Positions 44,970 to 46,583 of a stretch of 64,000 bases of DNA are shown piece after piece. Origin of the DNA: Desulfurococcaceae archaeon (GTDB taxonomy: Archaea; Thermoproteota; Thermoprotei_A; Sulfolobales; Desulfurococcaceae); assembly GCA_038888155.1 (NCBI GenBank), contig JAWAJB010000002.1, forward strand, positions 64,001 to 128,000. Direction: 5' to 3'. The position numbers and the translations under genes were made by a program. The notes under the pieces were generated by a model. The model worked only from the letters and a program-made list of their open reading frames with translations. It made no database searches and was not told where the DNA came from. Within the stretch, counting starts at the first letter, position 1, and each line of letters starts with the position of its first letter.

Positions 44970-45275
44970 CTATATTTCATGGCTTTGGGGATCTCCCCTA
45001 CGAGCTCCCTTAAATATGTGTCGTGAAAACAATACGCTTAATAAGACGAGCAATAAACTCATTGAAACCACTATAAGCAACAAGTGTACGGGGAAATCGC
45101 CGGCCCCGAAGCATATTGGTATAAACCCAATCAGTATACAAGCCCCAGTAGTTATAGAAACGCCAGATCCATCCTGTTTAAATTTAAGTAATGGAATTAT
45201 GGTACCAATAAACGCTAGAACAAGGCCAGCGAGAATCATAACCAAACCTAGTTTAAACAGCTTGGAAGAATTCAT
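44970..45275 (-). CDS. DUF131 (TIGR00304-like) membrane protein
   Basis: TM - GACILIGFIPICFG - TM; start overlaps the stop of its paralogue. Confidence 0.75.
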   Translation of the reverse strand: MNSSKLFKLGLVMILAGLVLAFIGTIIPLLKFKQDGSGVSITTGACILIGFIPICFGAGDFPVHLLLIVVSMSLLLVLLSVLFSRHIFKGARRGDPQSHEI

Positions 45276-45535
45276 TTCAAGATCCCGCCTAAGAGCATAA
45301 ACGAGGTAACAGAAACAACTAGTAGCACAATAGCGAGAATGACTAAGACCCTCGTTACCCGTTCGCTTGTACCGAAAACTATTGGTAGCGGCCCAATAAT
45401 TAACACGCCACCTCCTTCTATCTGTTTGTCCTCATTTCTAGTGCGGCTACCTTGAATTATAGAGATAAAAACCAGTAACGAACCAATGACGAACAAGATA
45501 AATGCAACTGCAAATATTGTCAAGGGAGCCACCAC
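45272..45535 (-). CDS. DUF131 (TIGR00304-like) membrane protein
   Basis: TM - GGGVLIIGPLPIVFGT - TM. Confidence 0.85.
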   Translation of the reverse strand: MVAPLTIFAVAFILFVIGSLLVFISIIQGSRTRNEDKQIEGGGVLIIGPLPIVFGTSERVTRVLVILAIVLLVVSVTSFMLLGGILK

Positions 45536-45675
45536 GGCTATCCCCTAAGTCTCATTTTTGTGAACTACATTATTAAATTTTAAGGAGTAATTCTTAATTC
45601 AGCGGGCTTTCAAAGGTAAAGATAGCAACTCACGTAGTGACAAATTAATTGTAAATATTTAATGAAGAAAGGAGT

Positions 45676-45857
45676 GGGCAACATGACCCCCATACTCCCA
45701 ACCAATGGGAAATACTAGTAATGAGCTGGTAACTGCTAGGCATTCGGAGACTACTCCCACCCGGGTCACCGGGTGGGAGTAACCCCGTAATGCCCGGCTA
45801 ATTACCAGCTCATTACCAGCTAAATCCCACTAATTGAGTTTGAGTGGGGCCATGCCC
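45676..45857 (-). ncRNA. Rod-like structured ncRNA with a strict bulge-helix-bulge motif; predicted precursor of a 148-nt circular RNA
   Basis: 182-nt end-to-end fold-back including perfect 13-bp and 14-bp stems; 8 G-U pairs on the minus strand; 53% GC (97/182) in AT-rich flanks; no ORF; TATA-like box upstream and pyrimidine tract downstream. Confidence 0.75.
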
Positions 45858-45879
45858 TAAATATATATACTCTATCTTG

Positions 45880-45899
45880 TACTTAAGTTAATTTTTTTG
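45880..45899 (-). promoter_or_regulatory. Putative BRE/TATA promoter of the ncRNA
   Basis: Minus strand CAAAAAAATTAAC-TTAAGTA; TATA-like heptamer 45886-45880 lies 23-29 nt upstream of G45857. Confidence 0.5.
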
Positions 45900-46010
45900 T
45901 ATAACAGGTTCTTATCAACGATAAAATGAGTATTGTTGTATATATTTTTGTATAATTTTGTTCAAGTAATACATTTACCATGATATACGTTGTATTACAT
46001 CCACTCATAG

Positions 46011-46583
46011 TTAATAAGTTGAGATCATATATGGTGAAACCAACACAATCCCTCTTTGGTGAGATTCCTGAATCGCAGAAGGATGTATATATAACCCGTA
46101 CATTAAGAGAATCGCCCTTGTTGATAAAAGCTTTTTTGTTTGAATTATTTGATTTACTTTTTCGTGGAAGCTTTTAATGTCTTCCCCGTGGATTCGGGAC
46201 TTTGATTCTCCGAAGATGAGAACAGATTCATTGCCATTATTAACTCCCTCCCCATAGAAATCTAGCTCAACAAACCTGTCTCCTAGGTCAAAGAAAGCCC
46301 TATCTAACTTATTTGTGGTTATTCCCATTTTCACGTATAGCCATGCTGGGAGAAAGCTTCTTGCAACGTCTTCTAATATCAGCCCAAAAGAATCGCTCAA
46401 CCGACTCATTTCCTTTGACAGCTCTCCTACATACTTTGCAATCTTCTCCATTCTCTCTACTAGTATCGCATTAGTCTTCTTAACTTCATCTATTTCTTTA
46501 GTAATCTCCTCAATTGATTTCTTAACTTCGCTGTATTCCTGTTGATCTTTATTGCTTTTTGCTTTCAGTAAAAGCATTGACAA
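46011..46583 (-). CDS. Coiled-coil plus PD-(D/E)XK nuclease-like protein
   Basis: Heptad N-half, then LSDSFGLILED, VELDFYG, FGESKSRI (E...D...ExK). Confidence 0.7.
   Translation of the reverse strand: MSMLLLKAKSNKDQQEYSEVKKSIEEITKEIDEVKKTNAILVERMEKIAKYVGELSKEMSRLSDSFGLILEDVARSFLPAWLYVKMGITTNKLDRAFFDLGDRFVELDFYGEGVNNGNESVLIFGESKSRIHGEDIKSFHEKVNQIIQTKKLLSTRAILLMYGLYIHPSAIQESHQRGIVLVSPYMISTY

Follow-up and report, generated by a model that had tools for sequence, protein, structure and literature searches.

A conserved rod-shaped RNA gene beside a nuclease-like gene in Desulfurococcaceae and related archaea, with a basal bulge-helix-bulge and a predicted circular product

Introduction

What is encoded by an intergenic stretch of an archaeal chromosome that folds on one strand from end to end into a single rod, and that carries near the base of this rod a motif resembling the substrate of the transfer RNA (tRNA) splicing endonuclease? 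The question is raised by a gap of 475 nucleotides (nt) between two minus-strand genes of a Desulfurococcaceae archaeon, one an open reading frame (ORF) for a 190-residue protein (46011-46583) and the other a DUF131 gene (45272-45535). Coordinates given without a contig or locus name refer to the window, by which we mean the whole stretch of 64,000 nt that was analysed (GenBank assembly GCA_038888155.1, contig JAWAJB010000002.1, positions 64,001 to 128,000 of the forward strand). An original prediction, made from the letters of this stretch, described the hairpin within the gap as a stand-alone RNA with a strict bulge-helix-bulge (BHB), from which the endonuclease EndA and the ligase RtcB would release a 148-nt circle. 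The term stand-alone is misleading, because the rod accompanies a gene for a PD-(D/E)xK nuclease-like protein. The element and its apical loop are located as follows.

45676..45857, minus strand: rod RNA gene; the predicted primary transcript is a hairpin of ~182 nt that includes both strands of the outer helix (fold and covariance model R1)
45768-45765, minus strand: apical tetraloop UGAC, closed by CGG/CCG (fold of minimum free energy)

Comparison of related loci indicates that the window almost certainly holds a conserved gene for a structured RNA. We further consider it probable that the region serves as a dedicated gene and that its product, a rod-shaped non-coding RNA of an undescribed family, would be released and circularised via the splicing enzymes. 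The original prediction was essentially right in its observation and right in kind in its interpretation; its central claim, splicing to a circle, is well supported by the comparison of related sequences but unproven.

The minus strand of the gap folds into a single rod

The minus strand from 45857 to 45676 forms one rod with a minimum free energy (MFE) of -125.0 kcal/mol (z -13.9), and none of 200 shuffled sequences folded as well. The plus strand of the same stretch reaches -99.0 kcal/mol (z -10.1), in keeping with the earlier statement that it is the minus strand that folds end to end. The MFE structure contains 77 pairs, ten of them G-U, and one C.A mismatch that is a G-U pair on the opposite strand. 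Every pair of the predicted 14-bp stem (45719-32 with 45802-15) is formed (14/14), as is every pair of the 13-bp apical stem (45752-64 with 45769-81; 13/13), and the UGAC loop had been placed exactly. The proposed outer helix CAUGGCCCC/GGGGUCAUG is recovered at seven of its nine pairs, with the ends of the rod closed by GGGCA/UGCCC instead. The reported strand asymmetry of G-U pairs stands with its single opposite case, the number of minus-strand pairs being ten and not eight.

The rod is present in a single copy in the 2.42-Mb assembly. No further match to it was found in the organism's own genome apart from a 15-nt chance match, so that a simple antisense role in cis or in trans is not indicated. 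ARAGORN detected no tRNA in the window, and Rfam 15 gave no match at the gathering score in the window or in 18 homologous loci; a search at E<=10 on 45300-46200 returned only chance microRNA-like matches. There is no ORF longer than 51 residues in the rod, and no C/D boxes were seen in it when the original prediction was made. These searches agree with what had been claimed about the absence of an ORF and of an Rfam family and about the flanks, or 'exons', which are tiny and belong neither to a tRNA nor to a ribosomal RNA (rRNA).

Two identities were considered and rejected. The rod is not an intron of a tRNA or rRNA gene, as its exons form neither. It is also not the signal recognition particle (SRP) RNA, as it has no SRP motifs and two SRP RNA genes are found elsewhere in the genome.

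Rods of the same architecture follow the orthologous gene in related genomes

A BLAST search with positions 45640-45900 against the 62 other genomes of the organism's own family (hereafter f1) returned only a 27-nt chance match. Homologues of the rod were located by synteny and by sliding folds of the loci, and not by DNA similarity; homologues of the 190-residue protein encoded next to it were located in 21 of these 62 genomes. At 18 further loci (L007-L023 and L028) we found a near-perfect hairpin of 150-215 nt, situated ~170-250 nt downstream of the gene and always on the strand of the gene. With the window included, all 19 loci with the orthologous nuclease-like gene, spread over 18 f1 genomes, have a rod of the same architecture ~180 nt downstream of it, one genome having two copies of both the gene and the rod and the others a single locus each. 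The stems of these rods have no common sequence. What they have in common is the architecture, an apex closed by CGG/CCG and the two flanks, and within the apical closure the relatives carry GNRA-type tetraloops or GAUAA-type pentaloops.

The strand of the gene folds better at all 19 loci, and it contains 203 G-U pairs compared with 58 on the other strand; A.C 1x1 mismatches show the mirror pattern (27 on the gene strand, 117 on the other). A double-stranded palindrome has no preferred strand, and the excess of G-U pairs on the gene strand therefore points to selection at the level of RNA, as had been argued for the minus strand of the window.

Covariation was assessed on alignment A1, a MAFFT alignment with a hand-set structure of 35 pairs. 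In this alignment 85.6% of cells are paired, compared with 67.9% in shuffled alignments and 28-48% with slid partners; 26 of the 35 pairs change on both sides, and none of 500 shuffles reaches the observed value on any of five measures, with the reservation that the sequences are related, so that the shuffle control overstates the effect whereas the slide control does not. Closely related loci show the same tendency: L012 and L013 differ by five double and five wobble changes versus one broken pair, L020 and L021 by one double and nine wobble changes versus two broken pairs, and L019 and L020 by ten double and 19 wobble changes versus two broken pairs. RNAalifold produced a poor consensus of 16 pairs from the MAFFT alignment, and the structures used for covariance models R1 and R2 were therefore set by hand and by script. 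Neither alignment takes account of structure in its middle part, where pairs are undercounted.

Model R1, built from the 19 f1 sequences, scores the window rod at 75.8 bits (E 2e-18). It has matches in 18 of the 63 f1 genomes, exactly those members of the genera g1 (12/16), g15 (1/1) and g19 (4/5) in which the protein orthologue is present, and no match in f1 genomes without the nuclease orthologue. A metagenome scan with the nuclease-like protein yielded seven loci, all of which have the RNA downstream on the same strand, and two of the metagenome rods are new (L068, with a strict BHB, and L071).

The sequences on either side of the hairpin are also conserved in kind, and two of them bear on its transcription.

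45887-45880, minus strand: TATA-like promoter box (CTTAAGTA), from the upstream alignment of 19 loci, matching TTTAAATA and similar boxes in relatives
45675-45660, minus strand: pyrimidine-/T-rich tract directly 3' of the hairpin, with similar tracts behind the hairpins of relatives

The TATA-like box lies ~22 nt before the first paired G of the window hairpin, and the spacing is fixed at ~22-27 nt across the 19 loci. It is from this box that transcription would be expected to start; TATATATATTT, directly upstream of the hairpin, which had been taken for the TATA-like box, is not the conserved element. The pyrimidine tract downstream is where it had been reported, and it is a likely terminator. 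Together, the upstream box and the downstream tract suggest a separate transcription unit consisting essentially of the hairpin alone.

The rod is found in two further families beside a different protein

Among 151 genomes sampled evenly from the order, R1 matched three genomes of a second family (f8), the match in one of these (G163) being its SRP RNA. In the two real matches, the gene next to the rod encodes an unrelated protein of 130-190 residues; the rod is upstream of this gene at a distance of 150-250 nt, and the two are divergent. This f8-type protein is present in 19 of 26 f8 genomes, and all but one of its 19 loci have a rod beside the gene; in every one of the 19 locus scans, that of the rodless locus included, the better score was that of the divergent strand. 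Of 18 f8 genomes sampled with model R2, which was made from the f8 rods, 15 have a match, each at a single locus, and R2 also detects one locus in a third family (f9). A profile of the f8-type protein finds it in 13 of 52 f9 genomes, and a rod is located within ~150 nt at 10 of the 11 f9 loci searched.

Comparison of f9 loci L135-L144 with f8 loci L078-L095 revealed that the rod and the gene are divergent in f8, that the RNA is upstream on the same strand in f9 groups g58 and g61, and that in g59 the two are convergent, the RNA overlapping the 3' end of the gene by ~15 nt. With the tandem order of f1, this makes four gene arrangements across two protein families.

A bulge-helix-bulge is conserved at the base of the rods

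The EndA substrate described in PMC4090602 consists of a central helix of exactly 4 bp and two 3-nt bulges on opposite strands, each located 3' of its helix strand; the cut rule used here, after the second bulge nucleotide, is taken from the same description of the motif. At the base of the f1 rods, the 5' strand runs through the outer helix, a 4-nt helix strand, a 3-nt bulge and the inner helix, and the 3' strand through the inner helix, a 4-nt helix strand, a 3-nt bulge and the outer helix. A strict 3-4-3 motif is present at 12 of the 19 f1 loci, with the window counted in its homologous register (register B, see below), and one locus has a 4-nt 3' bulge. These assignments were made by eye and by homology, with the flanks of the 19 sequences as anchors. 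A strict automated scan recovered the homologous motif at only nine of the 19 loci and reported false motifs inside perfect helices as well, and a relaxed scan produced many ties.

The central helix of f1 occurs as GCCC/GGGU, GCCU/GGGU, GUCC/GGAU, GUCU/GGAU, CCCC/GGGG and GCCU/GGGC, that is, it covaries from C-G to U-A at position 2 and from G-U to G-C or C-G at position 1. At the strict loci, the BHB fold differs from the MFE by only 0-2 kcal/mol, and for L019 and L023 the two coincide. The f8 rods have a 4-bp central helix in 18 of 18 cases and a strict 3-4-3 motif in 16 of 18; all 72 cells of their central helix are paired, the first pair being GU in nine rods, UA in three, and AU, CG and GC in two each. 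The motif has a flanking helix on each side, the inner one being the rod itself; the outer one measures 5-13 bp in f1, only 1-4 bp in f8 and, according to the register chosen, 5-16 bp in the window. Judged from these predicted folds, the BHB at the base is the best-conserved part of the rod family.

The piece predicted to be excised is 153-166 nt long at 18 of the 19 f1 loci and 214 nt long in L011. For six loci (L007-L011 and L014), the predicted ligation junction takes the form of a G[GGUAA]C pentaloop closed by a CCGG/CCGG-type stem. In L008, L009 and L010 this loop mirrors the apical CGG[GAUAA]CCG, and a circle formed from these rods would therefore have two like ends, which as support for a circle is suggestive only; L007, L011 and L014 carry GNRA tetraloops at the apex.

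The motif of the window can be read in two registers

In the window, the predicted BHB can be drawn in two ways, of which register A is the one given in the original prediction and register B is homologous to the motif of the relatives.

45845-45842 and 45841-45838, minus strand: register A, 5' strand, ACUC followed by the 4-nt bulge AAAC
45697-45694 and 45693-45691, minus strand: register A, 3' strand, GAGU followed by the 3-nt bulge AUG; predicted release 45839-45692, 148 nt
45850-45847 and 45846-45844, minus strand: register B, 5' strand, GCCC followed by the bulge CAC
45689-45686 and 45685-45683, minus strand: register B, 3' strand, GGGU followed by the bulge CAU; predicted release 45844-45684, 161 nt

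Register A is near-optimal in a constrained fold (-124.2 compared with the MFE of -125.0 kcal/mol) and accounts for ~12% of the ensemble. The motif had been called strict, but its 5' bulge has four nucleotides and not three, because G45697 is needed both by C45842 for the 4-bp helix and by C45838 for the inner helix; the motif is therefore a relaxed one. A 5' bulge of four or five nucleotides lies within the natural range of the rod family. The 5' strand contains a duplicated ACUCAA, and it looks as though this duplication created register A. Register B sits 5 to 8 nt further out, has the 3-4-3 geometry, and aligns with the GCCC and 3-nt bulge of L007-L009, L011, L014 and L023; its predicted product of 161 nt falls inside the family range.

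The rods stand beside genes for small proteins with a PD-(D/E)xK fold

The gene that precedes the rod in the window was characterised by structure prediction with AlphaFold2 (AF2) and by structural comparison.

46011..46583, minus strand: partner gene, 190 residues, with a long N-terminal coiled-coil helix and a C-terminal PD-(D/E)xK fold of the DUF3782/DUF8196 type (AF2 and Foldseek)

The AF2 model has a predicted local distance difference test (pLDDT) score of 93.7 and a coiled-coil helix of 70 residues. The top Foldseek matches are NucS/EndoMS, MspJI, Card1 and Can2, with a best E of 6e-4 and template modelling scores (TM-scores) of only 0.3-0.4 over the domain. Residues E106, D108, E126 and K128 are invariant in ten of ten sequences, the Atlas labels are DUF8196 and PDDEXK_10, and the closest relative of the protein is P0002, with 73% identity. 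Searches of Pfam, NCBIfam and PADLOC with the 190-residue protein gave coiled-coil noise only, as did a sequence profile against the Protein Data Bank, which matched coiled coils only. By its modelled fold, its acidic residues and its E-x-K motif, this partner is a member of the PD-(D/E)xK superfamily with a putative nuclease activity.

The partner of the f8 and f9 rods (~130 residues) is likewise predicted to adopt a PD-(D/E)xK fold (pLDDT 94.0), and its acidic and E-x-K residues are invariant. No sequence homology was found between the f1 partner and the f8/f9 partner, and the f8-type protein was not found in the organism's own genome, the f1 loci or the window beyond one weak domain of 13.9 bits. 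In PADLOC, neither partner protein rises above noise for any defence model. The rod is thus located within ~250 nt of a small gene with a PD-(D/E)xK fold in all four arrangements, and for this reason it most likely acts with that protein. Maintenance of the adjacency through four arrangements and two protein families argues for the rod and the nuclease-like gene being a functional pair.

Splicing enzymes and transcript data

The organism's own genome encodes two proteins of the EndA family (PF01974; 94.3 and 31.2 bits, both over the cut-off) and an RtcB homologue (587 bits). The two EndA-family proteins would form an (alpha-beta)2 enzyme of the two-subunit type with broad specificity, in which the weaker-scoring one is probably the structural subunit. 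The gene for the latter (L041, G000 C3:116569-116805) lies 1.6 kb from that for RtcB (L042, C3:118380-119684). No joints across a predicted junction were seen in four of seven runs, in one of which, with raw RNA reads, none matched the locus, the others being represented by contigs.

The DNA contigs of run X2 break at 45761/45766, at the apex of the hairpin. Since the palindrome interrupts short-read assembly, members of the rod family may often be missing from, or split in, metagenome-assembled genomes (MAGs).

How the rod may be processed, and what weighs for and against a circle

The process that we favour begins with cleavage of the rod transcript by the crenarchaeal (alpha-beta)2 EndA, which would cut in both bulges; of the proposed steps this is the one we hold with good confidence. 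RtcB would then join the ends of the excised rod of ~150-160 nt into a closed, double-strand-like circle, and circularisation appears to us a reasonable expectation, held somewhat less firmly. The leftover flanks of ~30 nt would be by-products. The rod would most likely act with the adjacent nuclease-like protein, as its bound partner or its regulator. A more speculative extension, which we regard as doubtful on present evidence, is a two-gene module of hyperthermophilic Thermoproteota, in which the gene for the RNA circle is combined with a dedicated PD-(D/E)xK nuclease that is loaded, guided or held in check by the circle.

Several observations weigh against this scheme. Five of the 19 f1 loci have a 5-nt 5' bulge, three of them together with one G.A in the helix, and L016 is fully paired and has no bulges. 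In the window, the stable motif, that of register A, has a 4-nt bulge; register B is weak (-116.5 or -118.0 compared with -125 or -126.5 kcal/mol, a cost of ~8 kcal/mol), and it needs a slipped inner helix and has two mismatches in the outer helix beside the central helix. Five loci of the most distant nuclease homologues have no hairpin detectable by sliding fold, and more distant homologues among L024-L039 have no rod. None of 12.9 million raw metatranscriptome reads from the same study matched, a sample that represents ~3% of a run in which the presence of the organism is not established, and the one metatranscriptome contig that touches the locus (445 nt, run X3) covers 45450-45728 only and ends in the 3' arm. 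Finally, the link to the nuclease is based on adjacency and co-occurrence in genomes that are related and hence non-independent.

In L016 (positions 1137-1335, genome G052), the base and the rod form a single helix of 96 pairs; this locus is either a degenerate copy or a differently processed variant.

With respect to the cut sites in the window, the relaxed motifs of relatives also cost 7-10 kcal/mol, and energy alone does not settle the choice between the two registers. We place register A, and with it the 148-nt junction written in the original prediction, at slightly under an even chance; register B is a credible second candidate, and cleavage at neither pair of sites would be rather surprising.

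The foremost alternative is that the RNA stays linear, that its basal internal loop is an uncut docking site for a protein such as the PD-(D/E)xK neighbour, and that the mature RNA is a hairpin of ~180 nt. All of the comparative evidence for a structured RNA fits such a molecule equally well. Moreover, the motif departs from 3-4-3 in the window and in five relatives and is fully paired in L016, departures that a pure EndA substrate would not be expected to tolerate, and the transcript data, in which no raw read matched and only contigs are available, contain no junction reads. Nevertheless, the three families have kept precisely the geometry that PMC4090602 describes for the EndA substrate, the sequence of the central helix varies freely by covariation, and the same source reports that crenarchaeal EndA accepts relaxed motifs. 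Taking both sides into account, we consider a linear hairpin unlikely.

Cleavage by EndA could also take place without the rod being the product. The rod might remain an unligated linear piece, or the functional RNA might be made by joining the flanks into a hairpin of ~25-35 nt that has a 7-nt loop, the rod then being a disposable intron. The BHB evidence is the same for this scheme as for a circular product, and the outer helix and the GCCC-type loop are also conserved in f1. However, a disposable intron has no need of a length held at 153-166 nt in 18 of 19 loci, of near-perfect pairing or of a conserved apical loop, and the f8 outer helix of only 1-4 bp would not give a stable exon hairpin; the prospects of this explanation are accordingly poor.

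A further possibility is that the palindrome functions as DNA, forming a cruciform that is a target or control site for the adjacent Hjc-like nuclease, or marking a site of recombination or replication, and that its transcript is incidental. Both partner proteins are indeed modelled with restriction-endonuclease-like or Hjc-like folds, and the apex interrupts assemblies in the way that DNA palindromes do. Against this stand the more than threefold excess of G-U pairs on one strand, the better-folding strand being fixed at 19 of 19 loci scanned in f1 and again in f8, the promoter-like box at a fixed distance with a T-rich tract behind, and the conservation of asymmetric bulges, and we give little credence to a DNA element. 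We dismiss a chance hairpin, a dispersed repeat such as a miniature inverted-repeat transposable element (MITE), and a terminator belonging to the gene upstream: the hairpin is intergenic and lies downstream of a same-strand gene, but it outfolds all shuffled sequences, and three families have kept both its location and its fold. The dispersed repeat was rejected on its distribution as well, there being one place in the assembly and one locus per relative, or two in a single genome, each with its own nuclease gene; many dispersed copies with target-site duplications would have counted against the original prediction.

Relation to known systems

The archaeal circular RNAs known so far are by-products or intermediates: introns of tRNA and rRNA, pre-rRNA, some C/D RNAs, and one permuted SRP RNA. 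Viroids are rod-like circular RNAs, and the product predicted here resembles them in being a small, highly paired closed rod of ~150-160 nt; it differs from them in being encoded by a single-copy chromosomal gene and in involving no RNA replication. Type III toxin-antitoxin pairs, and retrons with their non-coding RNA and effector, are two-gene modules of a protein and a structured RNA. The rod locus is like these in the close linkage of a small nuclease-like gene with one that encodes a structured RNA and in its patchy distribution among close relatives, and unlike them in having neither tandem RNA repeats nor a reverse transcriptase.

The processing itself has closer parallels. According to PMC3326292, the rRNA intron of Desulfurococcus mobilis and the tRNA-Trp intron of Haloferax volcanii persist as circles after their excision. 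Such introns share with the rod a BHB that flanks the piece and a route of EndA cleavage and ligation to a stable circle, which for the rod is a proposal, as well as, in part, the lineage Desulfurococcaceae; they differ from it in that they interrupt tRNA or rRNA genes, whereas the rod has flanks of ~30 nt and a promoter-like box of its own. The permuted SRP RNA of Thermoproteus, as presented in PMC4731332, is neither a tRNA nor an rRNA and is made by the tRNA-splicing machinery as a circular product, as we propose for the rod, but it is a known RNA in permuted order, whereas the rod has no SRP motifs. The processing stems of archaeal 16S and 23S pre-rRNA, as described in PMC3326292 and PMC7714728, also consist of a long helix with a BHB near the base, and the excised part is circularised; in their case the helix encloses a large rRNA, and in the rod it is the whole molecule. 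Metazoan tRNA intronic circular RNAs, discussed in PMC6614914, are made by tRNA-splicing enzymes as well, but derive from tRNA introns.

The survey of circular RNAs in Sulfolobus in PMC3326292 describes tRNA introns, rRNA intermediates, C/D RNAs, RNase P and a few unknowns. Full-text literature searches gave no report of a conserved gene with a BHB-excised rod as its one evident product, and none of such an RNA paired with a nuclease gene; supplementary tables of circular RNAs (e.g. those of PMC3326292) lay outside this search and could hold entries for other species. The processing route is known chemistry, and what is new is the dedicated gene, beside a nuclease gene, for a rod predicted to be excised at a BHB.

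If confirmed, these observations would add a new RNA family of ~50 sequences in three families with strong covariation, widen the substrate range and the biological role of the tRNA-splicing endonuclease and its ligase, and provide a handle on two uncharacterised families of PD-(D/E)xK proteins (DUF3782/DUF8196 and the family of 130 residues). Should the circle be real, these would be the first cellular genes with a viroid-like circular rod as their sole product. Should the module also be real, it would constitute an RNA-controlled nuclease system of a new kind, with a role, for example, in defence against viruses or in maintaining the genome. The genomes of several carriers are complete and consist of one contig (e.g. 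G036, G039, G040 and G162), which makes the hypothesis directly testable.

Genomic neighborhood and further observations

The wider gene context of the rod is that of an ordinary chromosome and includes hypC/D/E, a PibD-like A24 peptidase, PadR and MptE. Two overlapping genes for DUF131 membrane proteins (44970-45535) adjoin the rod RNA in the window. The same gene pair is located ~1.2 kb from the rod in two relatives of the genus (L012 and L013) and adjoins the f8-type module in one f8 genome (L073/L081:1676-2271); it was not found in the remaining loci.

Two further features were identified in the upstream alignment, between the stop codon of the nuclease-like gene and the rod.

45946-45955 and 45895-45904, minus strand: first and second copy of the motif TTATACAAAA, conserved across genus g1
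45998-45992 and 45972-45966, minus strand: inverted repeat GTAATAC/GTATTAC, just past the nuclease stop codon and conserved

The non-coding DNA that contains these features (45946-45998 and 45895-45904) is highly conserved. It could hold a terminator, an operator or another small RNA, and the inverted repeat at 45966-45998 is possibly a terminator or a protein-binding site.

The assembly itself (G000) measures 2.42 Mb with 6.4% contamination and two SRP RNA genes, compared with 0.9-1.5 Mb for 16 relatives of the genus, and this MAG may contain more than one genome. The two SRP RNA genes are the following.

C75:6682-6930 (L030), G000: SRP RNA gene
C3:147360-147629 (L031), G000: SRP RNA gene

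SRP RNAs were also met with among the weak R1 matches in f8, where L075:196-459, L076:1501-1737 and L077:1501-1737 were rejected as rods, the helix-8 motif being visible in them. These f8 SRP RNAs have a very long, almost perfectly paired terminal helix, the base of which resembles the BHB of the rods, and it may be that they, too, are processed at such a motif.

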